Of a stretch of DNA of 61,382 bases, positions 13,972-49,244 are shown piece by piece. The position numbers and the translations under genes were made by a program. How positions within the stretch are numbered: the first letter of the stretch is position 1; every line of letters begins with the position of its first letter. Source of the stretch: a virus; the IMG/VR virus record IMGVR_UViG_3300031673_000041, positions 1-61,382 of that record, one strand, 5' to 3'. The notes below the pieces were generated by a model. It was not told the origin of the DNA. It ran no database searches and saw only the letters and a list, made by a program, of their open reading frames with translations.

Positions 13972-15354
13972 ATGTTAAAATTATTTAGTGAGAACGTAGA
14001 ATTTATTTACGTTGAAAGTGTTATTGGTTCTGGTTATGAAGAACAAGTCGCAAAACTTGCAATTGAAGATGGGGTTGCATATAGGGCGGCACGTAAAAAT
14101 ATGCAGATACATTCTGCAATAATATTAAAAATAAATGATGAATTTAGTGGATTTTTTACGTTTCAAATTAACCACGAAGCAAAAGAATTCTGTTTACTAC
14201 AATCTGCTATGTCTTTAAATAAAAAAGACAAAGATATTTATAGAGATATGGTTGGTGAAATCATAGAACAGAATACTTTCGGTTATCCAATGATAATGAC
14301 TGTTAGCACAAAACATGATCTGGAATGTCCTGCCGTATTTGAATCAATCGGGTTTCAAACATATTTGAATTTAAGTGGATTTGCTTATATGGTTTATGGT
14401 ACATTAGATCAAGTTAGAATGAAAAGATTAGCACACGCAACTATGACAAACGCATGGACAACAACGAGGTCGGATTGGTTAAGAATGAAAAAAGAATGGA
14501 ACGAGAAAATTGAAGATGCTGGGGAAAAACATAATGTACCAAATCCCAAATATGCTTCTCGTGATGGTTGCTGGCAAGGCTCTAACGGATATTCAAACGT
14601 TGTGTTAGCATCACAAATCGTAGAAGATGGTAAGGTAATAAATAAAAAAGGTAAGTCATTTAATGGCAACGCCTCCGTTTTAGATCCTGTTGCATGTGAG
14701 GTCATATTGCGGTTTTTTATGCCAGAGACCGGTAAAAGCATTTATAATCCTTTTGGTGGTGGTGTTCAATTTGGTTTTATATCTGGTAGTTATGGTTATA
14801 AATATGTAGCAAGTGAAATAAGACAAAATCAATGTGATGCTAACAATAAAATATGTAGTGATTTTAAAGATGTGAAATGGATCAAAAGTGATAGCTCAAC
14901 CTATAAACCGGATGGAATGTTTGATTTAATTTTCACCTGTCCGCCATATTATAGGGTTGAAAAATATATAGATTATGATGGAAGTTCACCTGGTGGAGAG
15001 ATTAATACGCTTGGAACGTATGAAGAATTTAGGGATGCTTTGTTTTCTGGTTATAAAAAAGCTATAGATAGTTTAAATGATAATTGTTTTTTTGTTGCTA
15101 TGGTTGGCGATAGTAGGGGAAAGGACGGTGGCTATTATGGATGTGAAGCCGAGCATGAATTGTTTTTTAGGGAGCAAGGATTATATATTTATAATAAAAT
15201 AGTTTATTTAGAGTGTGAGTTTACAAGGTTAGCACACGCAAAAAGAACATTGGATTATAGGAAATTCCCTAAAAGAGAACAAAAGATACTTGTGTTTTAT
15301 AAAGGTGATATGAAAAAAATAAAAGAATTATATCCGCCAATTGGTAGATTGTAA
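13972..15354 (+). CDS. DNA N6-adenine/N4-cytosine methyltransferase with an extra N-terminal (GNAT-like?) domain
   Basis: SD AGAGGGG upstream. Motif I IYNPFGGGVQFG, motif IV DLIFTCPPYY, C-terminal KILVFYKGD, as in phage amino-methyltransferases. The N-terminal ~150 aa are unrelated and end in AVFESIGFQ. Confidence 0.8.
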   Translation: MLKLFSENVEFIYVESVIGSGYEEQVAKLAIEDGVAYRAARKNMQIHSAIILKINDEFSGFFTFQINHEAKEFCLLQSAMSLNKKDKDIYRDMVGEIIEQNTFGYPMIMTVSTKHDLECPAVFESIGFQTYLNLSGFAYMVYGTLDQVRMKRLAHATMTNAWTTTRSDWLRMKKEWNEKIEDAGEKHNVPNPKYASRDGCWQGSNGYSNVVLASQIVEDGKVINKKGKSFNGNASVLDPVACEVILRFFMPETGKSIYNPFGGGVQFGFISGSYGYKYVASEIRQNQCDANNKICSDFKDVKWIKSDSSTYKPDGMFDLIFTCPPYYRVEKYIDYDGSSPGGEINTLGTYEEFRDALFSGYKKAIDSLNDNCFFVAMVGDSRGKDGGYYGCEAEHELFFREQGLYIYNKIVYLECEFTRLAHAKRTLDYRKFPKREQKILVFYKGDMKKIKELYPPIGRL

Positions 15355-16226
15355 TGAAAGAATTTAAAAGTTTTTACAAATCTATAGAACATAGAAAATT
15401 CAATACTTGGTGTAAATATACTAAGAGATTAGACACCTATGGTTGTGGTTGCCAGCACAATTGTAAGTATTGCTATGCAAAAAGCTTATTGAGTTTTAGG
15501 GGTTTGTTTGGTGTTGAGTTGCCAAGGGTTGCAAACATTCATAAAATAAGAAATAAAATTAGAAAATTACCTAAATATGATTTTGTAAAATTGGGTGGTA
15601 TGACAGATTGTTTTCAGCCAATAGAATCACAAGAAAGTGTCACATATAATACAATTTTATTACTTAATCAATATAGAATTAGTTATTTGATTGTAACAAA
15701 AAACAATATGGTTTCAAGTGATTATTACATACAAATTTACGATAAAAACTTAGCACACTTTCAAATAACAATAACAACTACAGACGATAAGAAATGTTTT
15801 GAATATGAAAATGCACCTGGTACGAGTAAAAGAATAAAATCTATTGAAAAATTATATGGCTTAGGTTACGATGTAAGTGTCAGGTTGAGTCCATATCTTG
15901 AACAAAACATAGACTTTAAAACATTAAACAATATAAGGTGTAATAAAATACTTGTAGAGTTTTTGAAGGTTAACTCGTTTATAAGAAAATCTTTTAATAT
16001 AGACTATTCAGAATATACATTGGAATATGGTGGTTATTATCACTTGCCGTTAAAAAAGAAAATTGAACTTGTAAATAAAATAAATGGATTTGAACAATTA
16101 AGCGTTGGTGAATATGTTAAGGATCACCATTTATGGTTTAGAGATAATGTAAATTATAATAAAGGAGATTGTTGTAATCTTGACAGAATATATGAGGCAG
16201 ACAAACAGTTAGCGTTATTTAATTGA
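15354..16226 (+). CDS. radical SAM enzyme, spore-photoproduct-lyase-like (SplB / COG1533 type)
   Basis: TAATG overlap with the methyltransferase gene. YGCGCQHNCKYCYA (CxxxCxxC), GGMTDCFQPIE, YLIVTKNN and ITITTTD...GTSKRIKSIEKL..GYDVSVRLSPY match the family pattern. Confidence 0.7.
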   Translation: MKEFKSFYKSIEHRKFNTWCKYTKRLDTYGCGCQHNCKYCYAKSLLSFRGLFGVELPRVANIHKIRNKIRKLPKYDFVKLGGMTDCFQPIESQESVTYNTILLLNQYRISYLIVTKNNMVSSDYYIQIYDKNLAHFQITITTTDDKKCFEYENAPGTSKRIKSIEKLYGLGYDVSVRLSPYLEQNIDFKTLNNIRCNKILVEFLKVNSFIRKSFNIDYSEYTLEYGGYYHLPLKKKIELVNKINGFEQLSVGEYVKDHHLWFRDNVNYNKGDCCNLDRIYEADKQLALFN

Positions 16227-16397: not shown

Positions 16398-16631
16398 ATG
16401 AATCAAACTAAAAAGAAGAAATTATATAAAAAACGTAAATTGCATTACCAGCTTTTTGGCGAATCAATGGTTGATAGAGCTATGAAGTATTATGATTTGC
16501 ACAACGGACAATATGGATGCCATAGGTTTGTCGCATCAGAAATCAGGATAAGCAATGTAGAGGCTTGGGAATTAATCCGTATCGGTCTTTGGCGTAGAAA
16601 CAATGATTGGAAAAGAAAGGTCGAAAATTAA
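16398..16631 (+). CDS. hypothetical basic protein (77 aa)
   Basis: first ORF after promoter copy 4; Lys-rich N-terminus; stop overlaps the next start. Confidence 0.55.
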   Translation: MNQTKKKKLYKKRKLHYQLFGESMVDRAMKYYDLHNGQYGCHRFVASEIRISNVEAWELIRIGLWRRNNDWKRKVEN

Positions 16632-17332
16632 TGGCACGCCCACAAAAAGATGGACTTGATTATTTTTCTCTTGATGTGCACAATGATGATAAATTGGATT
16701 TAATAGAAGCAAAATATGGGATTGAAGGTTATGGTATTATTATACGATTATGGAAAAAGATTTACTCAACTGGTTACTGGTATGAATGGACTGAAAATAA
16801 AAAATTACTATTTAAAAAATCAATTAATGTTGATTTGGAATTATTGGACAGTATTATAGACGATGCAATACATTTTAATATATTCGATAAAAAAATGTTT
16901 GAAAATTATCAAATATTAACATCGAATGGAATACAGAAGCGATACCTGGAAGGAATTATTAGAAGAAAAAACAGACGATTTATTAAAGAATATTGTCTTT
17001 TTGATGTTTCCGCATACATAAACTCACAAGATGATAGCATAAACGTTGAAATAGTAAACATTGGTACACAAAGTAAAGTAAAGTATAGTAAAGTAAAAGA
17101 AAGTAAAGGAAAGGAAAGTATAGTAAAACATAAGTATGGCGAATTTAAAAATATTTTACTTACTGACCAAGAACTTGAAAAACTAAATACTGAATACACC
17201 GAAGAAACAACTCTCGAAGCCATTAAATATCTTTCTGAATCTATTGAGATGAAAGGTTACAAATATAAGTCTCATTACCTTGCTATGAAAAAATGGGTGT
17301 TTGATGCGATTAAGAAAAAGGAGCCGTTCTGA
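16631..17332 (+). CDS. replisome organizer, DUF4373 (Lin1244/Lin1753-like N-terminus) / DnaD-type
   Basis: MARPQKDGLDYFSLDVHNDDKLDLIEAKYGIEGYGIIIRLWKKIY matches the DUF4373 N-terminal pattern; TAATG overlap start. Confidence 0.75.
   Translation: MARPQKDGLDYFSLDVHNDDKLDLIEAKYGIEGYGIIIRLWKKIYSTGYWYEWTENKKLLFKKSINVDLELLDSIIDDAIHFNIFDKKMFENYQILTSNGIQKRYLEGIIRRKNRRFIKEYCLFDVSAYINSQDDSINVEIVNIGTQSKVKYSKVKESKGKESIVKHKYGEFKNILLTDQELEKLNTEYTEETTLEAIKYLSESIEMKGYKYKSHYLAMKKWVFDAIKKKEPF
17070..17128. repeat. C-free A/G/T repeat tract inside the replisome-organizer gene (iteron / origin candidate)
   Basis: No C on the + strand for 59 nt. AAGTATAGTAAA occurs twice (17081, 17116). Four to five AGTAAAG-type units are also present. 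Confidence 0.6.
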
Positions 17333-21679: not shown

Positions 21680-22237
21680 ATGACAAAAAGACAGGCTGTC
21701 CAAGAAACAAAAAAACATATTAAAATGGTACGGGATACAATTCATAGTTTAATTGTTCGTCTTTTAACTCAAAGCATGGAGCATGATCAAAGCAAATTAA
21801 AGAGTCCAGAGTTTGAAATTTTCCTCAAATACACTCCTAAATTGAGAAATACAACTTATGGATCAGATGAATATAAAATATTTTTGCAAGAAATGAAGCC
21901 AGCACTTGATCATCATTATGAAGTTAATAGGCACCACCCAGAGCATTTTAATAAATATGTTTGTAATGGTTGTTTTAAAGAGTTTCAACTTATGCCAAAT
22001 TATTGTGATGTTTGTGGGTATTCGCAATTTCAGAAAGAATCTGATATGAGCCAAATGAATATGCTTGATTTGATTGAAATGTTCGCAGATTGGTATTCGG
22101 CAACAAAACGTCATGCGGATGGCGATATACGAGAAAGTATTAAGATTAATACTAAACGATTTAGTATCTCAGAGCAACTTGTTTCTATTATGCAGAATAC
22201 AGCCGATTTGTTGGATGATATTAAATTAAATGAATAA
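21680..22237 (+). CDS. HD-like/DUF5662-like protein with an inserted zinc ribbon
   Basis: SD GAAGGAG upstream; MEHDQSKL ... LDHHYEVNRHHPEHF; inserted CNGC...CDVCG. Confidence 0.35.
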   Translation: MTKRQAVQETKKHIKMVRDTIHSLIVRLLTQSMEHDQSKLKSPEFEIFLKYTPKLRNTTYGSDEYKIFLQEMKPALDHHYEVNRHHPEHFNKYVCNGCFKEFQLMPNYCDVCGYSQFQKESDMSQMNMLDLIEMFADWYSATKRHADGDIRESIKINTKRFSISEQLVSIMQNTADLLDDIKLNE

Positions 22238-23640: not shown

Positions 23641-24423
23641 GTGAAAGAACAGATAAAATTAAATAATTTATCTATTGAGGAAACCAATAATATTATACCG
23701 CCCCATATGATCATGCTCAATTATCGTGGATCAATAGCACATGGGACATATGTTCCCCAAGAGGACAAGGATTCTATCGATGATAAGGATATATTGGGAA
23801 TATGTTTTGCAGAACCCAATGTATATCTTGGGTTGCATAACTTTGAACAAAAAGAAAAGAAATATAAGGAATGGGATTCTGTTGTGTATGAGATTCGCAA
23901 AGCATTTCGATTGCTGTTAAAACAAAATCCAAATATTCTTAGTTTACTTTGGGTTGATGATATTCATAGAATTTATACATCAGAAGTAGGAAAACTACTT
24001 TTAGAAAACAGAGATATGTTTTCTTCCAAACAAGCATATCATTCATTCGTGGGCTACGCATATAGTCAGTTACATCGGATGGAGCATTGTAATTTTAATG
24101 GATACATGGGAGCTAAGAGAAAAGCATTGGTTGAACGATTCGGATTTGACGTAAAAAACGCTTGTCATCTTATTAGACTTCTTCGAATGGGGATTGAATT
24201 TTTAACAGAGGGGAGATTGATTATAGCGAGACCAGATGCAGAGGAACTAAAAGAAATTAAAAAAGGGAAATGGACATTACAACAAGTTAAAAAGGAATCT
24301 GATCATTTGTTTGATTTGGCAAAAGAAGCATATGTAAGATCAGACCTTCCACCCAGACCAGATTATTATAAAGCAGAAGAAATATTAATTAGTATCATAA
24401 GGAATTATTTGTATTTAATGTGA
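23641..24423 (+). CDS. Pol-beta-superfamily nucleotidyltransferase, RlaP (RNA-repair-associated) type
   Basis: YRGSIAHGTYVPQEDKDSIDDKDILGI (GS...D.D) and VVYEIRKAFRLLLKQNPNILSLLW match the RlaP/Nuc-transf pattern. Confidence 0.65.
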   Translation: MKEQIKLNNLSIEETNNIIPPHMIMLNYRGSIAHGTYVPQEDKDSIDDKDILGICFAEPNVYLGLHNFEQKEKKYKEWDSVVYEIRKAFRLLLKQNPNILSLLWVDDIHRIYTSEVGKLLLENRDMFSSKQAYHSFVGYAYSQLHRMEHCNFNGYMGAKRKALVERFGFDVKNACHLIRLLRMGIEFLTEGRLIIARPDAEELKEIKKGKWTLQQVKKESDHLFDLAKEAYVRSDLPPRPDYYKAEEILISIIRNYLYLM

Positions 24424-24425
24424 GA

Positions 24426-24532
24426 AGGATGATAGCTTATTGGAAGAGCATGTGCACAAATCCCGGGTGGAAACAATTAGAAACAAGTTCCTGGTGGAAA
24501 CGCAGGTAATGGTTCGAATCCATTTCATCCCA
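24426..24532 (+). ncRNA. tRNA-like element (canonical D-arm, T-arm and acceptor pairing, aberrant 57-nt centre)
   Basis: Acceptor: AGGATGA (24426-32) pairs with TCATCC (24525-30). D-arm: GCTT-ATTGGAA-GAGC. T-arm: AATGG-TTCGAAT-CCATT (24507-24523, by block count). No 5-bp/7-nt anticodon arm could be drawn. The centre holds a direct repeat, TCCCGGGTGGAAAC / TTCCTGGTGGAAAC. Confidence 0.3.
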
Positions 24533-37837: not shown

Positions 37838-38962
37838 ATGAGTTTAATTTTAAATGGAGATCTTACCAAGCTGAAAAACCTTGGAATGGGAATGTATAAG
37901 GATGCCGTAGATGCTGGCAAACCTTTCAAAGTGTGGCTTGAAGATTACGTTGCAACCAAAGAGGGTGGAGGGTTTGAAACACCATATCGTGGATTGTCAA
38001 ACATGGAAACCTTCATGGAAATCAGGCGTATGAAAGCAGCCGGTGAAACTGTCCCAATGACCGCCTATGAGTTGGCTCTGGCCGCTCACGATATTAAGGC
38101 ATTCGGGTCGATCACTGACCCAGTTTCAAAGTTTTTCACAAATGCCAGTACATCTACATTGTTTCCAGAATTCATCGGAACCAGAATTTATACTGGCGCA
38201 ATCGTATCTGCGATCTGGCCGTTTTTCATGCAGGAAACAGTTAACATTACCGGATTAACTTTCAAGAAAATCTATCTCAATGATACTGCTCCTCAGAGAC
38301 AGGGTGGGCGTGTTGGTCGAGGTGGGTTGTTCCCGAAAAAGACTTTCACTGTCGGAGACGAGAGTGTGAATCTTGAAAAGTACGGTGTGGAAATTGAATT
38401 TGATTATGAGATTCTTGCAGATCAACCTCTTAACCTTTACGGTAAAGAACTTGAAAAAATCGGGAAACAAATCGGCGTCGATGAAACTGATGATATGTTT
38501 TACATCCTGGTCAATGGTGATGGAAATTCGAATGGACTCGAATCAGCTCAAACAGTATCTGCAGTAACAAGTGGATCGGTCTCAAAGCTCGATATTATCG
38601 ATCTTGCAACTGCTTGCCCAATGCCGTATAATCTGAATGTGTTTGCTGGCCCGACTGCTTATATGCGCCTGTATTGGGATGCTCTTTCTGATATGACGAA
38701 CCCGAACTTGCAAAAAGCTGAAATCCCCATACCGCTTCCAATGGGTTATAGATGGGATTCTGGTCAAATGTTATCCGTCACTGATCGATTTTACGGAGTC
38801 GATAAATCGCAAGCTATCTCTTATGTAACTAATGACGCAATGCTATTAACCGAGACAGACCGCATAATCAATAAGCAAGTTGTAACCACAGTCGTTAGCA
38901 AGAGAGGCATTTTTACAGTCAATACTCAAGATGCGATTGGGTGTCTTGATATTACCGCTTAA
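37838..38962 (+). CDS. major capsid protein
   Basis: 374 aa, SD AGAGAGG upstream, downstream of the protease/scaffold gene. The call rests on size and position. Confidence 0.7.
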   Translation: MSLILNGDLTKLKNLGMGMYKDAVDAGKPFKVWLEDYVATKEGGGFETPYRGLSNMETFMEIRRMKAAGETVPMTAYELALAAHDIKAFGSITDPVSKFFTNASTSTLFPEFIGTRIYTGAIVSAIWPFFMQETVNITGLTFKKIYLNDTAPQRQGGRVGRGGLFPKKTFTVGDESVNLEKYGVEIEFDYEILADQPLNLYGKELEKIGKQIGVDETDDMFYILVNGDGNSNGLESAQTVSAVTSGSVSKLDIIDLATACPMPYNLNVFAGPTAYMRLYWDALSDMTNPNLQKAEIPIPLPMGYRWDSGQMLSVTDRFYGVDKSQAISYVTNDAMLLTETDRIINKQVVTTVVSKRGIFTVNTQDAIGCLDITA

Positions 38963-39001: not shown

Positions 39002-39295
39002 ATGAATAAATTACGAGTAAGAGTTACGGAGCCACTGATTAGGGTCGATCTTGACGATAATGTTCTCGATGTTTCTCATAAGATGTTTGAGAAAGACCCG
39101 AAAGCAGTCTATGAGGTTCCTGATACAATATTCTGGCGAAGGTTAGAAGAGCCGGGAAAGATCACTAACAAGAAACCGTTACTGGTCAGGGTTGGAAGGG
39201 TCGCCGCTTCTGATGAGGAAGATGAGATCGAAGATACCAAGCCTACTCCCAAACCTAAGACCGAGGGTGTTCGCCGAGAAAAGGGAGGTAAGTAA
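39002..39295 (+). CDS. hypothetical protein (97 aa) with an acidic then basic tail
   Basis: SD TAGGAGAG upstream; stop overlaps the start of the 992-aa gene (TAATG). Confidence 0.6.
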   Translation: MNKLRVRVTEPLIRVDLDDNVLDVSHKMFEKDPKAVYEVPDTIFWRRLEEPGKITNKKPLLVRVGRVAASDEEDEIEDTKPTPKPKTEGVRREKGGK

Positions 39296-42273
39296 TGCGT
39301 AAACTCTTTTCATTTATAATGGTCGTATTATTGCTGGTGATTGGTGTTTCCAGTACATACGGTCAGAATTTGCCTGCCACGATTACAAACAGGGCAACTC
39401 TCGCATTGTGGATTCGGACAGGCACATTTACATTCACAAATAAGACACTGACCAGCCCGACTATTAATGGCCTATCGCTTACTGGAACGATTTCAATTAC
39501 CGGAACAAGTTATCTGAATCTGGGTACGGCTCTGGTTCCACTGGTGTTAACGACTACGCCACTTTTTACGGTGTATTCGACATCGGCTTCGGTTGCTGGA
39601 ACAATCCGTTCAGCCATTATTAATCAGGTACACACCGGAGACGGATACGCGACTATAGAAGCGTTGAGAGTCAATGTCAGTTCTGCCGTCCAGACCGGAT
39701 CGTGGACTAATGCGATTGTCGCACGGATTGCGTACAGTGGAGCGACTGGCGATGCAGGCGGGGGTTTGGCAGCAGCACTTTGTGCTGAAGTTGTTCTTCC
39801 TGCGATTACCGGCCCAGCCGGTTCATACTTTGCCGTCGATCTTGAATTTGATGCACAGGCGAGTTATGTGGCAAATGCCGGAACCGGATACCCGACCGCT
39901 TATATTAGGTTTGGGTTATACGGCAATGGTTCTGCAATTGCATCCTTTGAGGATGACGCTTATTTCATGCAGATGTCAACCGACTTTTCAAGTGCTTCTG
40001 GAAATATGTGGTATAATAATACTTTGAGAGTACAACTTGAAACCACAGATTTTTTCATTGCACTTTCGGACGCAGAGGGTGAATATTCATCCGCTTATAT
40101 GATTGACATTTCTAATGCAACCAATGCCACAAATTTAACGACTGCTTCTATTGCAACCGAGGGTGGACTTGCCGTTACACTGGAAACTTTTCTTGGTGAT
40201 GATTTAGATATGTCCACTTCTGGAACTGGTGTTTACGACATCACATTAAAAGACAATGTGGCTGATGCTCTCAGTATTGTACGTGGTACAACGGATATGA
40301 TGGAATTCACTTCAACATCAGCTTCGCCGTTAATTACCATTACACCGGCGACCACAATTACTGGGCTGTTGACGGCAAACGGAAGCGTGGCAGTTGGGGA
40401 TGCTGATTATATCGGTATAACTTCAAATGAGGTTATCACTTTTGCGGTCGCAGGAACAATAACAGCTTCTGGTGCTGATTTTGTAATTGGTGAAACTGCC
40501 GCCGAAAACGTTCTCAGACAATTGAGGATAATCGGTGATGCTGATTCGGATGCTGGTGGAAATATCACATCGGAAACACTGACAATTGAATTGAATACCG
40601 ACGCAACGCCCACAAATTCAACTTGGGATTTCTCAAGTACACAGGGTGCAGGTTATGCGTTTGATAAGGCAGTGAGTGTAACTGGCCTGATCACTTCAAG
40701 TGCTGGGTTTGTTTTAGGTGATACTGATTATATTGGTATTACTTCGAACGAGACTATTTCTTTTTTAGCAGCTGGATCAATTACTGTTAATGGAGCAAAT
40801 TTTCTCGTTGGCCCGGTGACTGCATTAGATGAAGGCAGACCGACCTTTGCTATTGTTGGCGATGCAGACACTGATGGAACAGCAACAACTGAAGCATTAA
40901 CGTGGACGTTGGCCGGAAATACCGATCCTACTGCAGCGACTTGGGGACTTACGTCAACTCAAAGTGCCGGTTATACTATTGATAAGGCGGTAAGTGTAAC
41001 GGGTTTGGTTACGTCGTCGGCCGGTTTTGTTTTGGGCAACACTGATTACATCGGAATAACAGGCAATGAAATAATTACATTTACTACGGGTGGCACTATA
41101 GATTTTACTGGCGCACTTGTTACAATTGTCAGTCCCGATCTTGCAGCGGCCGCAAACAATGCTCTGATCATAACCGCAACGACTTCTATTACAACGGGTT
41201 CGAATTATGCGGTTGAAATTACCCACACCAATACCGCTGGTTCTGCTGCAAATTTTGCAGGTTTATTTGTCACGACTACAGCCGGAGCGGATTTCGCAGG
41301 TGCTATGGGTATTATGTCACGGGTTGATATGGGTGCATACGAGGGCATAGTTGGTGGAGCGAATGCTTTATATGCCGAGCTTTTATTGTCTAACAAAATA
41401 CAGACCGGCGGCGAGTATCATGTTCTTGTTTTGACACTTGCTGAAAGTGGAAGCACTTTTTCACCCAGTATTACCGTTACTCGTCCTACGACCTTCACGA
41501 AGTATGAAACTTGGGGTGATGGTGCTGAACACATAGACGATTATGCGTATCTGTTTTATCTGAACGGATTCACGGCAGAGGCAGGTCATTTAGTATCGCT
41601 CACAAAACAAACACTTCGAGTCAATATTGGTCAAGTAGCCCGTTATATGGTATTGAGTCAAATGCAGGACGGACTTGGTTTGGGTATCAGCGGAACACCG
41701 ATGGTATTGGCGGCAACTACAGATCAAGCAACTGAAATTTTTACAACCGGCTCGTCAACATCTGGTAATCATTTTCATAATTATATGAAGGCAACCAGTA
41801 CAGCACAAACTACAGGCGGTCATTTTGCTCTCTACGTAGAGAATGATGTGGCGTTTCAAGCAGCCGGACAAATGGGCGGTTATTTTAAAGTTGATATGAA
41901 TGCGATTCAGGCTCCCACGGGTGGCGCAAGTGTTGTCAATGCCGAACTGGTTATGCCGACCGGTGTACAGAACGGCGGACAGTATAACGCATTTGTAGCT
42001 GACATCGAATGCCCTGCAACCATGGATATGTTTTACAATGCTGCTATACCGTCTGGTTTTATGAAATTGGAAGTCTATGGGAATGGTACTGCTGTGACTG
42101 ACTTTAACTTAAGTGCTAATCTATTTAATTTGAGTGGTATTACTGCAGCGACAGATGCAATGCTTGAAGAAACTACAGTAGCGGATGCAAATGTTAGTAT
42201 AACTCATTCAATAAGAATTAATATTGGTGGAACACCGTATTACATAGCTTTAAATACAGCTAACACTTGGTAA
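39295..42273 (+). CDS. large Thr/Ser/Ala/Gly-rich repeat protein with a signal-peptide-like N-terminus (992 aa)
   Basis: MRKLFSFIMVVLLLVIGVSSTYGQ. About 2.4 tandem copies of a ~106-aa unit (G[DN].DYIGIT.NE.I.F). Three dispersed copies of a second unit (AE[VL][VL][LM]P...YGNG[ST]A). Confidence 0.8.
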   Translation: MRKLFSFIMVVLLLVIGVSSTYGQNLPATITNRATLALWIRTGTFTFTNKTLTSPTINGLSLTGTISITGTSYLNLGTALVPLVLTTTPLFTVYSTSASVAGTIRSAIINQVHTGDGYATIEALRVNVSSAVQTGSWTNAIVARIAYSGATGDAGGGLAAALCAEVVLPAITGPAGSYFAVDLEFDAQASYVANAGTGYPTAYIRFGLYGNGSAIASFEDDAYFMQMSTDFSSASGNMWYNNTLRVQLETTDFFIALSDAEGEYSSAYMIDISNATNATNLTTASIATEGGLAVTLETFLGDDLDMSTSGTGVYDITLKDNVADALSIVRGTTDMMEFTSTSASPLITITPATTITGLLTANGSVAVGDADYIGITSNEVITFAVAGTITASGADFVIGETAAENVLRQLRIIGDADSDAGGNITSETLTIELNTDATPTNSTWDFSSTQGAGYAFDKAVSVTGLITSSAGFVLGDTDYIGITSNETISFLAAGSITVNGANFLVGPVTALDEGRPTFAIVGDADTDGTATTEALTWTLAGNTDPTAATWGLTSTQSAGYTIDKAVSVTGLVTSSAGFVLGNTDYIGITGNEIITFTTGGTIDFTGALVTIVSPDLAAAANNALIITATTSITTGSNYAVEITHTNTAGSAANFAGLFVTTTAGADFAGAMGIMSRVDMGAYEGIVGGANALYAELLLSNKIQTGGEYHVLVLTLAESGSTFSPSITVTRPTTFTKYETWGDGAEHIDDYAYLFYLNGFTAEAGHLVSLTKQTLRVNIGQVARYMVLSQMQDGLGLGISGTPMVLAATTDQATEIFTTGSSTSGNHFHNYMKATSTAQTTGGHFALYVENDVAFQAAGQMGGYFKVDMNAIQAPTGGASVVNAELVMPTGVQNGGQYNAFVADIECPATMDMFYNAAIPSGFMKLEVYGNGTAVTDFNLSANLFNLSGITAATDAMLEETTVADANVSITHSIRINIGGTPYYIALNTANTW
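40399..41150 (+). repeat. in-frame tandem repeat, period 318-321 nt (2 full units + 1 partial)
   Basis: Unit starts align at 40399 (GAT GCT GAT TAT ATC GGT ATA ACT), 40720 (GAT ACT GAT TAT ATT GGT ATT ACT) and 41038 (AAC ACT GAT TAC ATC GGA ATA ACA). Confidence 0.85.
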
Positions 42274-42296: not shown

Positions 42297-42331
42297 GGGG
42301 ACTGTGCCGACATAAACAGTCCCCACTTTTT
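42297..42331 (+). terminator. rho-independent terminator after the 992-aa gene
   Basis: GGGGACTG (42297-304) pairs with CAGTCCCC (42317-324), 12-nt loop, then ACTTTTT. Confidence 0.75.
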
Positions 42332-42351
42332 AAAAAGAGGAGATACGAGAA

Positions 42352-42735
42352 ATGATTAAAAAAATCATGTTAACAGTGGTGATGTGCTTTGTATTTGTCG
42401 GATCAATTCACGCAGAAGTAATCGAAGTAAACACGATGGAGCGAATGGTATTATTGTCCTTGTTGCCAGTGGAAGCAAGTTACGCTACTTGGAAAATTAT
42501 TCAAGAACTACGAATGGAGTTGTCTTTCACGGAAGAGGAACTTGTTTTAATTGATTTAAAACCCGATGTGAATGGTAATACAACGGCAAATTGGGAGGCA
42601 GTCGATCCGAAGTCAGTTGAATTCGGAGTTACCGCAGCAAGATTTATAGAGGATGCCCTTCTTGCTTTAGACGAACAAGAAAAACTATTACCAGAACACG
42701 TTAGTTTGTATGAGAAATTTATTGTGAAGGAATAA
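42352..42735 (+). CDS. secreted protein (127 aa)
   Basis: SD AGAGGAGA upstream; signal peptide MIKKIMLTVVMCFVFVGSIHAEV. Confidence 0.65.
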   Translation: MIKKIMLTVVMCFVFVGSIHAEVIEVNTMERMVLLSLLPVEASYATWKIIQELRMELSFTEEELVLIDLKPDVNGNTTANWEAVDPKSVEFGVTAARFIEDALLALDEQEKLLPEHVSLYEKFIVKE

Positions 42736-42745
42736 AAGAATTTTT

Positions 42746-42813
42746 GCGTGAGGCAGGATTATTATGGATTCAGATGGATGCCACGTAGGTTCTGCCTTAC
42801 GCACCCCAAGGGG
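42746..42813 (+). promoter_or_regulatory. long RNA hairpin plus SD-sequestering mini-hairpin upstream of 42822
   Basis: GCGTGAGGCAGGA (42746-58) pairs with TTCTGCCTTACGC (42790-802): 13 bp including G-T pairs. CCCC (42804-07) can pair with GGGG (42810-13) of the SD GGGGAGG. Confidence 0.45.
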
Positions 42814-42821
42814 AGGATACA

Positions 42822-43004
42822 GTGCCGTTGAATGATTTCAGATGTCTGCAATGTAGAACGATCTTTGAACGACTCACCTCAACATACAAGAGAAGAACAA
42901 AATGCCCGTACTGTGGCGCTATGGCTCTCAAAATGATTCCCAGAGGCGTAACTCCCGTATTTAAGGGATCGGGATTTTATACTACTGATTACAAAGGGAA
43001 ATGA
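42822..43004 (+). CDS. FmdB-family (CxxC_CxxC_SSSS) zinc-ribbon protein
   Basis: GTG start after GGGGAGGA; FRCLQCRTIFE ... KCPYCG ... FKGSGFYTTDYK is the family signature. Confidence 0.8.
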   Translation: MPLNDFRCLQCRTIFERLTSTYKRRTKCPYCGAMALKMIPRGVTPVFKGSGFYTTDYKGK

Positions 43005-43007
43005 GAC

Positions 43008-43763
43008 ATGATGCAGCTTATCCATTCAAGTGGTACAGAATTTTTCAGTAAAATATTTACTGTAATGTATAATCTGAAAAACGTAAATAAATACGGTTAT
43101 AATTCATATGAGCCATGCTTATTTTATGGAATGTATTTCAATGAAGATTCTATACGGTTAATGGAGCATAGGGGACAGGCGATTATATTATGGGCTGGAT
43201 CGGATATTAGAAGTAAGGGTCAACCATTTATTACAAAAAATACACCTACCAAAGTTTTGCATTTGGCAGCATCTCCATCGATTGAGCAGAGATTAAAAAG
43301 GGTAGGATTTTCATATCGCAGAATCCCGAACATTGCATTTACAAATTGGGATTACTGGAAACCCGAACCGCTTGGTGAAAAGATTTATTTCTATGCGCCG
43401 TCCGATTTTTATGGTCTTAACTGTCTTGACCAGATTAAAGAATTTGGTTATCCGGTTATCCATATTGATCGAGCGCAGAGACACGACATCTCAAAACTAC
43501 GCAACATTTATAAGGAATGTTTTATTGGGTTGAGATTAACACCGGAGGACGGAAACTCTGCAACGGTCTTAGAGATGGGATTAATGGGAAGGAAGACTAT
43601 CTGGAATGGCGACCAGTTGTCGGCTATACCGTGGAATGATTTTGATAAGCTCAATGAATTAATTTGCGTGGAAGCAAAAAAGATCGGAACAAGTCAAGAT
43701 GCTTTTGCAAAAAAAGTTTATGATTCAGTTACTAAGACAACCGAGGGGTGGTTTGATGTATAA
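43008..43763 (+). CDS. glycosyltransferase-like (GT-B C-terminal half-like) protein
   Basis: FIGLRLTPEDGNSATVLEMGLMGRKTIWNG resembles a GT-B nucleotide-sugar-binding segment; weak by-eye call. Confidence 0.35.
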   Translation: MMQLIHSSGTEFFSKIFTVMYNLKNVNKYGYNSYEPCLFYGMYFNEDSIRLMEHRGQAIILWAGSDIRSKGQPFITKNTPTKVLHLAASPSIEQRLKRVGFSYRRIPNIAFTNWDYWKPEPLGEKIYFYAPSDFYGLNCLDQIKEFGYPVIHIDRAQRHDISKLRNIYKECFIGLRLTPEDGNSATVLEMGLMGRKTIWNGDQLSAIPWNDFDKLNELICVEAKKIGTSQDAFAKKVYDSVTKTTEGWFDV

Positions 43764-43911
43764 ATTAATAATAGGTTTTTTGTTGTTTATTTTATTGTCT
43801 TGTACTTACAATCCAAACATTCAAGATAATTCTATATGCGAGCATAGACAGACAAAGGTATCATGGGATGGTATTGAACGATGTTTGCAATGCGGGGCAA
43901 TAATTGAATGA
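43756..43911 (+). CDS. small lipoprotein-like, Cys-containing peptide (51 aa)
   Basis: MYKLIIGFLLFILLSC (lipobox-like LLSC), then CEH...CLQCG. Its start overlaps the upstream stop and its stop overlaps the radical SAM start (ATGA). Confidence 0.45.
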   Translation: MYKLIIGFLLFILLSCTYNPNIQDNSICEHRQTKVSWDGIERCLQCGAIIE

Positions 43912-44687
43912 ACAGTCCGAACTTATTGAAGATTGAAACAACTGACAAATGTAATTCGGAATGTGTTTTCTGTCTACATCGAAAACATGCAGGGCACGAT
44001 ATGGACTTTGATCTATTTAAAAAGATAGTCGATATGTTTCCGGATGCGCAGACTGTTTCACCTCAATTTTTCGGAGAGCCTACAATGTATCTGCAATTAC
44101 CAGAAGCGATTCAATATGCAAAGGATGCAGGGAAAAGGGTAAACTTTTATACAAACGGATCTTTTATTTATGGCAATATGGTATCGGTGGCGAGCGCAAA
44201 ACCGGATCATATCATATTCTCGGTCGAGGCAGACAATAAAGAACTCTATGAAAAGATAAGGGTCGGACTTAATTGGAGCAGATTCTTGTTTAATCTTGAT
44301 GCAATGCAGGAATTCTGCACAGACACAACTATTACAATCAGGATGACAATCTGCAAAGAAAATCAGAATCGGATTGGAGAGATTAAAGCATTCTGGCAAG
44401 ACAAGGGATTTTATGTTGTGGCAGTTCCGGAGGCTCCCATAAAAAGATTTAAAACAGATAAATATAACAACTATAAATGTGATCGACCAATGAGACAGTT
44501 AATTGTAAAATGGAATGGCGACGTGGTTTTTTGCTGTGTTGATTTATGGGGAAAATATGTAATAGGTAATGTCAAGAATGAGGGGGAGTCAATTTGGATG
44601 AATAAAAGATTTAATGAATTAATAAAAACAATTAATACGGAAGACGCCCCAACTTTATGTTTAACATGTGGATTTCGGACAAGATAG
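43908..44687 (+). CDS. radical SAM enzyme with partial SPASM (twitch-like) domain
   Basis: CNSECVFC (CxxxCxxC). C-terminal CDRPMRQLIVKWNGDVVFC fits C-x9-15-G-x4-C, then CLTC. At 259 aa it is BtrN-like in size. Confidence 0.8.
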   Translation: MNSPNLLKIETTDKCNSECVFCLHRKHAGHDMDFDLFKKIVDMFPDAQTVSPQFFGEPTMYLQLPEAIQYAKDAGKRVNFYTNGSFIYGNMVSVASAKPDHIIFSVEADNKELYEKIRVGLNWSRFLFNLDAMQEFCTDTTITIRMTICKENQNRIGEIKAFWQDKGFYVVAVPEAPIKRFKTDKYNNYKCDRPMRQLIVKWNGDVVFCCVDLWGKYVIGNVKNEGESIWMNKRFNELIKTINTEDAPTLCLTCGFRTR

Positions 44688-44698
44688 AAGGAACGACA

Positions 44699-45247
44699 AT
44701 GGGACAAGAACAAAATAGTCAATTTTACAATAATATATACGATTCGGTTTTAAGTTATCAACATCACTATGCCGACAGTTTGTATTATAAACTGTGGCAA
44801 GAATTAAGTAAATGGATTGAACCAGACATGAAAATCATTGATCTTGGTTGTGGGTCGGGGCAATTAGCAAATCTTTTATACGATATTGGGATCAAAAATT
44901 ATATTGGGATAGATTTTAGTCAGACTGCAATTGATATGGCAAATAAAATTAATCAAATTAAAACATTCCAATTTATTTGTGCTGATTTTAGAACTTGTCC
45001 GATTCCCGAAGGTGACACTTATATGTTATCAGAAGTGCTTGAACACGTTCAAGATGATCTTGAATTATTAAAGAAAATTCCTGATAATAAACGGATTATT
45101 GCCAGTGTTCCAAATTTTGATTGTTCAGGACATGTTAGATATTTTTTAAATGAAAATAGTGTTAGTAAAAGATATAATAAAATTATCAATATTGAATACT
45201 TATATAATGTTAACAATAAATTTTTTGTTTTTATAGGAAAAAATTAA
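44699..45247 (+). CDS. class I SAM-dependent methyltransferase
   Basis: IIDLGCGSGQLAN (motif I), IGIDFS, YMLSEVLEHV. Confidence 0.8.
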   Translation: MGQEQNSQFYNNIYDSVLSYQHHYADSLYYKLWQELSKWIEPDMKIIDLGCGSGQLANLLYDIGIKNYIGIDFSQTAIDMANKINQIKTFQFICADFRTCPIPEGDTYMLSEVLEHVQDDLELLKKIPDNKRIIASVPNFDCSGHVRYFLNENSVSKRYNKIINIEYLYNVNNKFFVFIGKN

Positions 45248-45290
45248 TATAAAAGTTGCAGGTTTAAGACAGGACAGGAGAAACGAAAAA

Positions 45291-46352
45291 ATGAAAAAAC
45301 CAACTATCGCATACGTAACACAGCACAATTGTTTAAGAGTAACTAAGGAGTCGGTTTGTTTAATTGATCTCGGCTACAAGGTGCATTTATTGTCACAAGT
45401 AATGACCAATAATAGACATTATACCAGTCCTCACCAATGGATACAACTATCGGATTTTGAAGAGACTGTCAAGCTGATGGATAAAAGTATTGACATCTGG
45501 CACGTTCATAATCATCCGAACTGGTTTGCATCAAAGATTAGAGAACTACTTCCAAAGTCGAAAATTGTATTCGATTATCACGATTCAAATTATTGGTTTA
45601 TTGATCAGAGCCCTCTACATAATACGAGCGAATTAACGACATGGTATACAGAGGATATCGCAGTCAGATCCGCAGACGCTTTTATTGTCCCGTCTGAAAA
45701 GTGCAAAGAAGAACTCCGGACACGAACAAGGAAGCCGATTAGGGTGGTACCGCCCGCCGTTCCGATTGCGATGTATGCGAATACGGAATGGAATGTATGG
45801 GGCGGATTAGTATCAGCTGGCGGCCATGCAACTGCATCTCGAAAGGGAGTTTTTCAGCATAATTCATGGCGGGATTACGGAGAACTTTACAAAGCATTGC
45901 AAGGGAAGCGAAAAGTCTTTGCATACTCTCCGTCATTTAATTTGGTCGAGAATGACAAGGTCGCTCAATATTATATGAACATGGGTGTCTCACTGAATAG
46001 ATTTAATTATCCGGATTTGATTGACAGGATTGGAGAACATACATGGAATCTGGTTGGGAATTTAAAACATACGAAAGTTATGGATTATATGGCTCCAAAC
46101 AAATTCTATGATGCAATCGCCGCAGGAGTTCCAAGCCTTGTATTGAACGCAGAGAGTGTCGGTAATCTTGTGGAAAAATACGGGATCGGAATTTATATTA
46201 AAGGTGATGATACGGATTATATTATTGACCAGATTATGAAACGATGGGAAGAACACCACGAGAAAAGATATAATCTAATAATGAAACGCAGAAAATTCTC
46301 AATGGAAAATTATATTGGACAAATAACCAGGTTGTATGAAACAATATTATAG
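45291..46352 (+). CDS. glycosyltransferase, GT-B fold (GT1/GT4-like)
   Basis: SD ACAGGAGA upstream; two-lobed pattern; APNKFYDAIAAGVPSLVLNAESVGNLVEKYGIGIYI resembles the GT-B C-terminal donor site. Confidence 0.6.
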   Translation: MKKPTIAYVTQHNCLRVTKESVCLIDLGYKVHLLSQVMTNNRHYTSPHQWIQLSDFEETVKLMDKSIDIWHVHNHPNWFASKIRELLPKSKIVFDYHDSNYWFIDQSPLHNTSELTTWYTEDIAVRSADAFIVPSEKCKEELRTRTRKPIRVVPPAVPIAMYANTEWNVWGGLVSAGGHATASRKGVFQHNSWRDYGELYKALQGKRKVFAYSPSFNLVENDKVAQYYMNMGVSLNRFNYPDLIDRIGEHTWNLVGNLKHTKVMDYMAPNKFYDAIAAGVPSLVLNAESVGNLVEKYGIGIYIKGDDTDYIIDQIMKRWEEHHEKRYNLIMKRRKFSMENYIGQITRLYETIL

Positions 46353-46363
46353 GGGAGGATTAG

Positions 46364-46852
46364 GTGGCGGCAAACGTAACAGTAGCAGAAGTTAGATACA
46401 TAGGGAATTGGAATGCAGTAGATATTCCCGATGCAGATTTGGACGGCATTTTTATACCGGCTGGTGATGCCTGGATTTCATTAAAACTTGAAACGACATT
46501 AGCATTATATACAACGGCAAATACAAACAAGGGAGCGATTGCGAAGCAAGCCGAACTTTATTATGTCGGTTATCATATTGCATCCCGACCTACAAAAGAA
46601 GATTTCCAAGTTGGGCCAGTCAGGAGTGCTAGAGTAAAAGGCGATGAAGTTGTGGCAATGGCAAAAAACCTGAAAAGTCTATGTAAAGAGATGCTGGGAC
46701 TTCTTGGATTGTCCTGGAGCAGTCACGACTTCACGGCAGTTGGTGGAGACAGCTATCATCCACTCGGACAGGACGATACAAACATTAATATGTCAGTAGC
46801 TCAGGATGATTCTGATTATCCATTTAATTTAATGGGGAGAAAAATCGATTGA
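46364..46852 (+). CDS. head-tail connector/adaptor candidate (162 aa)
   Basis: GTG start after GGGGAGGA; first gene of the head-tail joining block. Confidence 0.45.
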   Translation: MAANVTVAEVRYIGNWNAVDIPDADLDGIFIPAGDAWISLKLETTLALYTTANTNKGAIAKQAELYYVGYHIASRPTKEDFQVGPVRSARVKGDEVVAMAKNLKSLCKEMLGLLGLSWSSHDFTAVGGDSYHPLGQDDTNINMSVAQDDSDYPFNLMGRKID

Positions 46853-48446: not shown

Positions 48447-49244
48447 ATGGCAGTAACAGACCAATTAGCGAAACCACTTGAATCCACGCATCAAATGGGA
48501 AGGTTTACGCTAAATAGAATCGTGAGACAGGACGCTGCTGTAACTAAACCGATAGCATGGGCGAATGTTGAAGCGATTGTGGCAATCAGTATCGGGGAGC
48601 CTACTTTCCGATATACCTACGACCAGCATCAGCAAGGAGCCGGTGACGAAGCGAACGAGATCAAGCGAGATCCGAGATGGAACGGCACGGTCACAGTTCT
48701 CGCAGGCCAGATCGGGGATTTTATCGCTGCAATCGAAGGCAAAACATGGGGAACGGCGCAGGCTGTAATGTCAGCACGAATGGACAGCGACAATCCTATG
48801 GTACACTGGGAAGCTATTTGTCGAGATGCTGATAATTCCACACATTTATTCAGTCTGGTTATTCAGGATATGATTATCGATAGTTTTGGCTTCGACAATC
48901 CAATGGACTACAGCGACCGGTCCATTCCGTTTCATACTTACCACGAGCCGTTTATTTTAGCTCAAGGTTATGAAATGGTATTCGATAAGTTCGCTGCAAC
49001 ACCCACGACATCGACTTATACATTGTCTTGTTCAACACCAGCTACCTTATTGACCGCAACTGAACATGATGACTGGGACTTCAACAATGCTGTGTTTATT
49101 AAAAATGAAGACCATTCAGCAGGTGATGTTACCGGGCGCAGAGTTCGAGCGGCTGTATCGATTACGGCGGCCTCTCTTATATTTACAGCAGGGCTTCCGG
49201 CAGCGACAGATGAGGTTAGCGTACTGTACGCAAAAGCAACTTAA
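48447..49244 (+). CDS. major tail (tube) protein candidate
   Basis: SD GAAGGAGA upstream; 265 aa; position between the head-tail genes and the chaperone/tape-measure genes. Confidence 0.6.
   Translation: MAVTDQLAKPLESTHQMGRFTLNRIVRQDAAVTKPIAWANVEAIVAISIGEPTFRYTYDQHQQGAGDEANEIKRDPRWNGTVTVLAGQIGDFIAAIEGKTWGTAQAVMSARMDSDNPMVHWEAICRDADNSTHLFSLVIQDMIIDSFGFDNPMDYSDRSIPFHTYHEPFILAQGYEMVFDKFAATPTTSTYTLSCSTPATLLTATEHDDWDFNNAVFIKNEDHSAGDVTGRRVRAAVSITAASLIFTAGLPAATDEVSVLYAKAT

Follow-up and report, generated by a model that had tools for sequence, protein, structure and literature searches.

A cassette of predicted sugar-modifying enzymes lies between the capsid genes and the head-tail joining genes of IMG/VR virus record IMGVR_UViG_3300031673_000041, an almost complete phage contig of ~61.4 kb that is called the window here. 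The cassette is predicted to contain two soluble GT-B glycosyltransferases, F as the core and B as an accessory, together with a class I methyltransferase (E) and a twitch radical S-adenosylmethionine (SAM) enzyme (D). We propose, with a probability of about one half, that it serves the cytoplasmic, late-expressed glycosylation of phage proteins, probably of the virion, with a tailored methylated sugar. A preceding sequence-only reading had described six same-strand open reading frames (ORFs), with several diagnostic motifs, as one glycan-modification island placed between the capsid block and the head-tail genes. The ORF listing and the profiles contain all six ORFs and all of these motifs, and the position is borne out by the major capsid protein upstream and the Neck1 and tape measure genes downstream. 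The six ORFs, at 42822–46352 on the + strand in the ORF listing, are as follows.

42822–43004, +: A, FmdB-type zinc ribbon, 60 aa
43008–43763, +: B, compact GT-B-fold glycosyltransferase-like protein, 251 aa
43756–43911, +: C, lipobox-like Cys-containing peptide, 51 aa, with its ATG at 43756
43908–44687, +: D, predicted radical SAM enzyme with a twitch C-terminal domain, 259 aa
44699–45247, +: E, predicted class I SAM-dependent methyltransferase, 182 aa (start at 44657 in the ORF listing)
45291–46352, +: F, predicted GT4-type GT-B glycosyltransferase, 353 aa

F is predicted to be a GT4-like GT-B glycosyltransferase. Its N-domain matches Glyco_transf_4 at 44.8 bits, above the cutoff of 28.5, and the C-domain alone reaches only 12.7 bits. 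An exhaustive search returned a family of 356 cluster representatives, and among 50 members Glyco_transf_4 was matched by 44, Glyco_trans_1_4 by 14 and Glyco_trans_1_2 by nine; the scan of genomes for the family was made with an alignment of 15 sequences. Against solved structures, the C-domain of the family profile matches best to 4w6q (3e-11), an entry deposited as ‘glucosyltransferase’ that we take to be GtfC, followed by the Gtf3-type chains 3qkw and 3rhz (1.5e-8), and the N-domain matches BshA. The canonical EX7E motif was not found in the C-domain of F, where the segment reads PNKFYDAIAAGVP and an Asp replaces the second Glu; the PNK residues of this variant motif are invariant or nearly so. 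Gtf3 adds glucose onto serine-rich-repeat adhesins already modified with N-acetylglucosamine (GlcNAc) (PMC5207161).

B has no sequence match in Pfam, PHROG, NCBIfam or the PDB, where a profile search gave only chance matches. It is a member of a conserved family, with 14 homologues that share the C-terminal motif CFIGLRLT..DG..TV.EMGLMGR. The AlphaFold (AF2) model of B has a predicted local distance difference test (pLDDT) score of 91 and a predicted template-modelling score (pTM) of 0.87, and a Foldseek search of the PDB with this model gave 36 matches at E ≤1e-3, all of them GT-B glycosyltransferases, with query-normalised TM scores of 0.36–0.66. The top fold matches include sucrose-phosphate synthase (6kih, 2.8e-6), SdgB (the GlcNAc-transferase of SD-repeat proteins, aligned with probability 1.0), BshA and SenB. 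By its modelled fold, B is a predicted GT-B glycosyltransferase. No relation between B and F was detectable by hhalign, and the two are therefore independent GT-B lineages. A homologue of B in locus L067 lies among GT2 and GT11 genes. None of B, D, E and F contains a membrane segment, the maximal Kyte–Doolittle hydropathy over 19 residues, KD(19), being ≤1.24.

D matches two Pfam families above their cutoffs, Radical_SAM (PF04055; 2.3e-12, 47.9 bits, cutoff 29.5) and SPASM (PF13186; 1.3e-11, 45 bits, cutoff 21.5). It carries the motifs CNSECVFC (C15, C19 and C22), C191-x12-G204-x4-C209 and C251-x2-C254, and across 10 relatives the only invariant cysteines are C15, C19 and C22 together with C191, C209, C210, C251 and C254. 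This set suffices for one auxiliary cluster, and hence gives a twitch layout; the twitch domain is a shortened SPASM domain with one auxiliary cluster instead of two, and does not contain the full 7-Cys CX9-15GX4C...CX2CX5CX3C...C motif (PMC9012708). D is predicted to belong to the radical SAM superfamily and, within its SPASM/twitch group, to the twitch subclass. The best match of D among solved structures is BtrN (E=1e-6, 31.5 bits, in two short segments), C191 and C209 aligning with the cysteines of the BtrN motifs ANMSC and LPC. BtrN acts on a carbohydrate-like substrate by a two-electron oxidation (PMC9012708). An identification of D as the BtrN orthologue, that is, as a 2-deoxy-scyllo-inosamine (DOIA) dehydrogenase, was ruled out by the low score, spread over two short segments, and by a window free of aminoglycoside genes; at most, D acts in the manner of BtrN. 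All matches to named NCBIfam models lie far below their cutoffs, so that no orthology can be claimed.

A role of D in glycan chemistry is independently supported by the genomic context of its cellular homologues. Five distant ones were examined (P0011, P0012, P0013, P0015 and P0021; 28–33% identity), and all five are inside sugar or polysaccharide clusters. These clusters contain DegT aminotransferases, NeuB, CTP_transf_3 (CMP-sugar synthetase), PglD-like acetyltransferases, Epimerase_2 and dehydratases, and also GT2, GT4, PMT, a Polysacc_synt flippase and methyltransferases; a GT4 gene is located directly 3' of the homologue P0021. The compact twitch architecture recurs in ~28 viral loci, the family being present on at least 25 viral contigs. 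Within three genes on each side, 25 of these loci contain GT2 (7), GT25 (2), GT1 (2), epimerase or dehydratase (3), NeuB and aminotransferase genes, class I methyltransferases (8) and Methyltransf_24 (4), and, among structural genes, Phage_capsid (3), Gp23 (1), portal (2), head-completion (2) and connector (2). Four unrelated viral contigs have their radical SAM gene at most three genes downstream of a capsid gene; in L037 it is placed directly after the T4-type gp23.

L037, 9986–10906: capsid-adjacent compact twitch radical SAM gene
L018, 9986–10774: the same
L022, 5880–6668: the same
L014, 8825–9586: the same

In both L018 and L022, a methyltransferase of ~470 aa is encoded just before the radical SAM enzyme, and its C-terminal half falls outside known families. 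Two candidates for hidden glycosyltransferases, namely the second half of the 466-aa methyltransferase of L022 and a 298-aa protein of L014, were rejected, as neither shows a relation to F; searches of the PDB and PHROGs with the two proteins gave nothing beyond an N-terminal methyltransferase domain. It is possible, though unlikely, that the compact twitch family as a whole (CxxxCxxC...C-x17-CC...CxxC, 250–320 aa) is a capsid-associated maturation enzyme applying radical chemistry to the virion itself, in which case it would oxidise or epimerise sugars on capsid or fibre proteins, or alter the capsid protein directly.

E contains the motif I sequence DLGCGSG and matches Methyltransf_11 (5.6e-13) and Methyltransf_25 and Methyltransf_23 (~1e-12 to 1e-13), with Methyltransf_31 also above its cutoff; its best named matches, UbiG and BioC, are far below theirs. 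It is predicted to be a class I methyltransferase. Its true start is probably Met15, at 44699, because the homologue in L073 has 181 aa and the sequence GAAGGA lies upstream. The small protein A matches TIGR02605 (38 bits, cutoff 31.3) and Pfam Zn_ribbon_8 (3.7e-8). C is listed as a 70-aa ORF at 43699–43911; read from its ATG at 43756, which has a Shine-Dalgarno-like GAGGGG upstream, it shares 8 nt with the end of B and 4 nt with the beginning of D. It has a lipobox-like LLSC and a hydrophobic N-terminus (KD 1.75), and no homologue in any fetched locus. C is best regarded as a candidate peptide, predicted to be translationally coupled to B and D and peculiar to the window. The gene calls made from the letters alone came through this analysis well. 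The zinc ribbon, the class I methyltransferase and the 353-aa GT-B glycosyltransferase were recovered by profiles, the BtrN-like radical SAM enzyme with its auxiliary-cluster motif by structure matches and invariant cysteines, and the weak GT-B call for B by its fold; profile searches reassigned neither glycosyltransferase-like gene to another type of family. For the 51-aa lipobox peptide, the ORF and its LLSC stood and relatives were not found.

The coupling of C to D invites the reading that D matures this peptide in the manner of enzymes for ribosomally made peptides with post-translational modifications (RiPPs), or alters the capsid protein by crosslinking, epimerisation or Ser/Cys oxidation, the glycosyltransferases then having a separate function. 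SPASM/twitch radical SAM enzymes are best known as peptide maturases (PMC10114670), D has weak NCBIfam matches to the PapB, CcpM and mycofactocin maturases, and the radical SAM genes that come after the capsid gene in L018, L022 and L037 have no recognisable glycosyltransferase among the nearest three genes. We nevertheless judge this very unlikely. A conserved precursor is missing, as an unrelated 81-aa protein is encoded upstream of the radical SAM gene in L001 and an SP127 homologue in L004, and C itself is confined to the window; the CxxxCxxC motif starts at residue 15, leaving no room for an N-terminal RiPP recognition element (RRE); the maturase matches are far under their cutoffs (e.g., 34.6 vs. 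340 bits); the cellular homologues of D are found in sugar clusters, not beside peptides; and the best structural match is a carbohydrate enzyme. D as a RiPP maturase proper was rejected, with neither a conserved adjacent precursor nor an RRE/PqqD-like domain.

The surroundings of the cassette were compared with those in related phages. A blastn search of cultured phages with the island gave only an 81-bp chance-level match, tblastn of D against them only matches of ≤28% identity, and no relative of the neighbourhood of F was found among GenBank phages. The comparison set consists of relatives from metagenomes in which the capsid, BIG, neck and tail genes are homologous, BIG being a 992-aa protein encoded downstream of the capsid gene. 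The landmarks in the window are these.

25551, +: large terminase, structural module
29347, +: portal, structural module
31906, +: minor head protein, structural module
37838–38962, +: major capsid protein (phrog_3922 major head protein, 8.8e-36; Pfam Phage_capsid_4, 6e-8)
between the major capsid protein and BIG: 97-aa ORF
39295–42273, +: BIG, 992-aa protein
42352–42735, +: SP127, 127-aa signal-peptide protein
46364–46852, +: first head-tail joining (adaptor-like) gene, named from its position only, with no Pfam or PHROG match
47325, +: Neck1/tail-completion gene (phrog_5)
48447–49244, +: tail-tube protein
50557, +: tape measure protein

Homologues of the adaptor-like ORF at 46364 come straight after the variable region in L001, L073, L080 and L081, and this ORF is predicted to be its downstream edge. 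Between BIG and the adaptor, the relatives contain the following genes.

L001–L003: 81-aa ORF, radical SAM enzyme, F, 121-aa signal-peptide protein
L004: 67-aa ORF, SP127-like protein, radical SAM enzyme, F
L073/L074/L082: SP127-like protein, F, E-like methyltransferase (1e-55), 116-aa signal-peptide protein, and no radical SAM enzyme
L081 (closest capsid protein, 2.7e-129): FkbM-type methyltransferase, 158-aa ORF, GT1-family GT-B, F, 142-aa ORF
L080: 87-aa ORF only
L079: SP127-like protein, homologue of zinc ribbon A (4.7e-18), unrelated unknown genes, and no glycosyltransferase

BIG and the adaptor enclose a hypervariable cargo slot, which holds a mosaic cassette and not a fixed unit of six genes. 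Every relative with a glycan cassette has F in it as the constant element, whereas the radical SAM enzyme, the methyltransferases and the second glycosyltransferases are exchanged from cassette to cassette; the smallest cassette consists of a radical SAM enzyme and F, and the E homologue adjoins the F homologue in L073 and L082, both of which are devoid of a radical SAM gene. The view that the genes had been inserted in the structural module is supported by the slot being empty in L080 and carrying other cargo in other relatives. As for the six genes forming one island, the enzyme calls and the position hold, and the outer parts do not: in L079 the zinc ribbon follows an SP127-like gene with no glycosyltransferase or radical SAM gene nearby, which suggests that A goes with SP127 and not with the glycan enzymes, and the peptide C is private to the window. 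The synteny survey proposed for relatives thus yielded a shared slot beside head genes and a changing content.

F homologues were found in L001, L004, L073, L081 and L082, and in a second lineage (L077, L078, L105, L106 and L108) that has a different terminase, a different portal, a different capsid protein of ~515 aa and a GC content of 0.32–0.49. In this second lineage, all five loci have F immediately downstream of the capsid gene and of one or two p152-like genes, and B follows F, ahead of a protein of 690–1275 aa, in the four loci that reach past F (L105 stops at F). F is found 38–44% identical and in the same post-capsid position across phages with a GC content of 0.32–0.49 that belong to two unrelated lineages. 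Some glycan-type genes of the relatives lie outside the slot. They comprise a 255-aa Sulfatase-domain protein in L079 and weak Glyco_transf_9 (heptosyltransferase-like) matches in L001 and L079; in L017, a 252-aa protein adjoining a radical SAM gene has a putative sulfotransferase-like ILITGCARSGTS motif, recognised by eye.

L079, 3210–3977 and 1–689: glycan-type loci outside the slot
L001, 2220–3107: the same
L017, 1826–2584: putative sulfotransferase-like protein

Expression of the cassette is most simply tied to the late structural genes. The island has a GC content of 0.35–0.37, i.e., it is more AT-rich than its structural neighbours (0.43–0.47), and all long ORFs of the window are on the + strand. 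Two stable hairpins sit either side of the SP127 gene.

42297–42332, +: terminator-like hairpin directly 3' of BIG, with a 9-bp GC-rich stem followed by ACUUUUU
42745–42803, +: long stable hairpin of 59 nt, with no U-run, between SP127 and gene A

The first has a folding free energy (dG) of -18.5 kcal/mol (z -4.1) and the second, which reaches up to the ribosome-binding site of gene A, of -34.8 kcal/mol (z -5.9); for each, none of 200 shuffled sequences folds as well, and neither matches an Rfam family. Promoter-like sites number 29, compared with 30.2 expected from shuffled sequence. Because such sites are no commoner than by chance, the enzymes are most simply expressed by attenuated late-operon read-through, and we infer that they are transcribed with the late structural genes, past the terminator-like hairpin.

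Under the proposed mechanism, F, aided by B, would O-glycosylate a phage-encoded protein in the cytoplasm using host nucleotide-sugars, the acceptor most likely being a virion surface protein, either the Thr/Ser-rich, fibre-like BIG or a capsid or decoration protein. E would O-methylate the sugar. D, via a 5'-deoxyadenosyl radical, would abstract a hydrogen atom from a sugar carbon and then either epimerise the centre or, as in BtrN, oxidise a hydroxyl to a ketone, the electrons passing to the auxiliary cluster, which is fully ligated by Cys; epimerisation or other C–H chemistry is as possible as a BtrN-type oxidation. By either route a common host sugar would become a rare one. The particle would gain a variable coat of glycans that could shield it, help it adhere or make it more stable. 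There is a precedent for phage glycosyltransferases that glycosylate virions (Freeman 2023, as cited in PMC12619734). A phage-borne acceptor is favoured because F keeps its sequence (38–44%) and its position across phages that must, by presumption, infect very different hosts, because the enzymes come with no membrane machinery, because lysogeny genes were not found among the ORFs scanned, and because protein-glycan transferases are the nearest solved relatives of F and are also found among those of B. The evidence leans to phage proteins over host glycans as the target.

The enzymes could instead remodel host surface glycans, acting on undecaprenyl-linked or nucleotide-sugar intermediates of lipopolysaccharide (LPS), capsule or general glycosylation, so that a late surface change blocks superinfection or stops progeny from adsorbing to debris; we consider this rather unlikely, yet a serious rival. 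It would suit the cellular homologues of D, all of which, as far as examined, lie in clusters for polysaccharides or nonulosonic acids that also contain flippases and GT2/GT4 enzymes, and GT4 enzymes often build lipid-linked glycans. The LPS-type genes elsewhere in L001 and L079 (the weak Glyco_transf_9 matches and the L079 Sulfatase) would fit as well, as would the three signal-peptide or lipobox proteins that flank the enzymes (BIG, SP127 and C, all with hydrophobic N-termini). However, a membrane component, whether of the GtrA/GtrB/GtrC type or another, is missing from the island, and its four enzymes are free of membrane segments; a flippase, polyprenyl-phosphate glycosyltransferase, polymerase or ligase was not found in it either. 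No integrase or lysogeny module was present among the ORFs scanned, and the genes belong to a late unit with no promoter above chance. The identity of F and its fixed post-capsid position over such a range of GC content are also hard to square with a host-specific acceptor.

The glycosylation of phage proteins would have two candidate acceptors in the structural module, the major capsid protein and BIG, the latter possibly a head fibre. BIG is rich in Thr, Ser, Ala and Gly (Ser+Thr 22%); ~300 aa at its N-terminal end are conserved, the C-terminus is variable, and there are internal GDTDYIGITSNE-type repeats; some C-termini in the family resemble phage fibre knobs. Its N-terminus resembles a Sec-type signal (MRKLFSFIMVVLLLVIGVSSTYGQ; hydrophobic segment KD 2.30), a feature kept in most homologues, and the signal-like N-termini of BIG and of most aligned homologues end in AQ, GQ or SQ. 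No family match was found for BIG, tblastn also gave nothing, and a model of the N-terminal region built from 15 homologues was unusable (pLDDT 53.6, pTM 0.30). In all relatives BIG comes after the capsid gene as part of the core. Its homologues follow two unrelated capsid protein families, that of L071 and L072 being a third, unrelated family beside those of the window and of the L077 lineage. It may be a virion fibre or an exported protein, and both are kept as candidates. SP127 (N-terminal KD 2.05) has no family match and its homologues come after BIG in L004, L073/L082 and L079; it is predicted not to be part of the enzyme cassette. General O-glycosylation of BIG of the Bacteroidetes type was dropped, since D[ST][AILMTV] motifs number 0 against ~5.7 expected from composition. 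Strong Shine-Dalgarno sites precede nearly every gene, and such sites speak against a Bacteroidota host; that host is therefore argued against, despite the AQ/SQ-type signal peptides. From our own reading of the lipobox and of the AQ/SQ-type signal peptides, the host is probably not Gram-positive. Near-complete relatives have been binned in metagenome-assembled genomes of candidate division KSB1 (L080, GCA_014381395.1), Neomegalonema (L081) and Syntrophomonadaceae (L082), i.e., in three unrelated phyla, which makes such bin assignments unreliable evidence of the host.

If BIG is exported, it (and perhaps SP127) might be glycosylated in the cytoplasm by F and B before Sec export, on the model of the serine-rich-repeat adhesins that GtfA/B and Gtf3 glycosylate prior to export, and the product would be at the cell surface or extracellular instead of on the virion. 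The conserved signal-like N-terminus of BIG and of most aligned homologues, its large size and Ser/Thr content, the modification of such adhesins (PMC5207161) by Gtf3/GtfC, the best solved relatives of the F profile, and the presence of SdgB among the fold matches of B are all consistent with this. We still hold it to be quite unlikely: BIG is a core gene right after two capsid families and has, with its conserved N-terminus and variable C-terminus, the usual fibre layout, it occurs with no glycosyltransferase at all in L080, F and B occur without BIG in the L077 group, and the similarity to Gtf3 is restricted to the nucleotide-sugar-binding C-domain.

Several observations weigh against glycosylation of virion proteins as the function of the cassette. 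The GT-B fold and membership in GT4 do not fix the acceptor, and for B the scores of the small-molecule enzymes sucrose-phosphate synthase and BshA are no worse than that of SdgB. The chemistry proposed for D is deduced from its context and from a match to BtrN of ~31 bits. Position by itself says little, as head-neck junctions are common sites for accessory genes (morons), and the enrichment of radical SAM genes beside capsid genes has a binomial p of 0.006–0.24 that varies with the background assumed, and is thus only suggestive. The signal-like N-terminus of BIG is hard to reconcile with cytoplasmic capsid assembly. BIG is present without the cassette (L080 and L079), and F and B without BIG (the L077 group); as each occurs alone, BIG is not an obligatory partner. 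In mycobacteriophages, glycosylation reportedly involves C-terminal extensions on capsid and tail-tube proteins, from which the cassette phages differ: no added C-terminal extension was found in their capsid and tail-tube proteins relative to those of L080. Finally, the function of the cassette, its acceptor and its glycan are here predictions.

The cassette might also be a DNA hypermodification system, in which sugars would be added to hydroxymethylated bases of the phage DNA by the glycosyltransferases and then tailored by the radical SAM enzyme and the methyltransferase. GT-B enzymes that glycosylate DNA do exist in phages (Pyle 2024, as cited in PMC12619734), and this phage has another radical SAM gene paired with a DNA-methylase-like one at 13972–16226. 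However, a Pfam search of the ORFs of ≥140 aa between 102 and 30753 found no thymidylate-synthase-like hydroxymethylase or base-modifying enzyme, the cassette is in the head module and not in a replication module, and F and B fall in GT4-like families and not in the known DNA glucosyltransferase families, which makes such a system extremely improbable. In the early-region pair, the radical SAM ORF (15354–16226, +; 290 aa) scores 27.7 bits against Radical_SAM, slightly below the cutoff. Its translationally coupled partner has 460 aa and, towards the C-terminus, weakly matches N6_N4 DNA-methylase (E=4e-4); the two may form a system for modifying nucleic acids. Other families of the early region, all on the + strand, are Lin1244_N (16607–17332, 1.8e-24), DUF5662 (21680–22237, 1.5e-30) and RlaP (23641–24423, 3e-18), and no DNA polymerase was recognised among the ORFs scanned there. 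Just 3' of the RlaP-family nucleotidyltransferase, Rfam gives a tRNA match at 24426–24532 (+; 38.3 bits, gathering score 29), in which 107 nt cover model positions 1–71. ARAGORN called no tRNA across the window, and the match may be an interrupted or atypical tRNA.

Phage particles are usually regarded as shells of unmodified protein, and most documented cases of virion glycosylation come from a few mycobacteriophages. The present work defines the F family (~356 sequence clusters), found in two unrelated uncultured phage lineages and beside capsid genes each time, as well as its companion, the compact GT-B protein B, and, across phages, a family of small twitch radical SAM enzymes tied to sugar and capsid genes. 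If the cassette does decorate virions, phage coats would bear tailored, rapidly swappable rare sugars, with a bearing on immune recognition in phage therapy, adsorption, mucus binding and evasion of host defences. If the compact twitch family acts in maturation, a radical-SAM-dependent step would for the first time be part of the maturation of phage particles. The enzymes are few, small and soluble, and are a possible source of new radical carbohydrate chemistry and of glyco-engineering tools.

No description of a radical SAM–glycosyltransferase cassette beside phage capsid genes was found in the literature searched; phage ‘hypervariable’ or ‘antibiotic’ clusters are noted there to include radical SAM genes, to which no function is assigned. 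Four known systems bear comparison. The seroconverting cassettes (GtrABC, Oac) are likewise phage-borne accessory genes that alter glycans, but they are membrane-embedded and expressed from prophages, whereas the enzymes here are predicted to be soluble and belong to a late operon, with no lysogeny genes detected; a Gtr-type cassette was rejected for the lack of membrane segments in B, D, E and F, of the corresponding Pfam families, and of an integrase among the scanned ORFs. Gtf3/GtfC and SdgB are cytoplasmic GT-B enzymes that act on serine-rich or SD-repeat adhesins; the C-domain of F and the model of B match them, and a large Ser/Thr-rich signal-peptide protein, BIG, is encoded nearby. The likeness is nonetheless limited to the GT-B scaffold and the nucleotide-sugar domain, the N-domain of F being GT4/BshA-like and an accessory Sec system being absent here, and acceptor specificity is not inferable from it.

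BtrN (2-deoxy-scyllo-inosamine dehydrogenase of butirosin biosynthesis; PDB 4M7S/4M7T) and D are both compact proteins of ~250–270 aa with an N-terminal CxxxCxxC and a twitch domain whose four cysteines hold one auxiliary [4Fe-4S] cluster, in D as predicted from its sequence. They differ in that D, at 31 bits, is not an orthologue, has the invariant pair C209-C210 to itself, and is not accompanied by an aminoglycoside pathway. The closest functional parallel in phages is that of the mycobacteriophage Che8 type (Freeman et al. 2023), with which the cassette shares phage-encoded soluble glycosyltransferases and a proposed cytoplasmic, late decoration of the virion, here deduced from gene content. 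The proteins are non-homologous, the present capsid and tube proteins have no evident C-terminal acceptor extension, and the present cassette sits inside the head module and adds a twitch radical SAM enzyme. The inclusion of a radical SAM enzyme in a phage gene set for sugar modification would be a new addition to the known kind of virion glycosylation.

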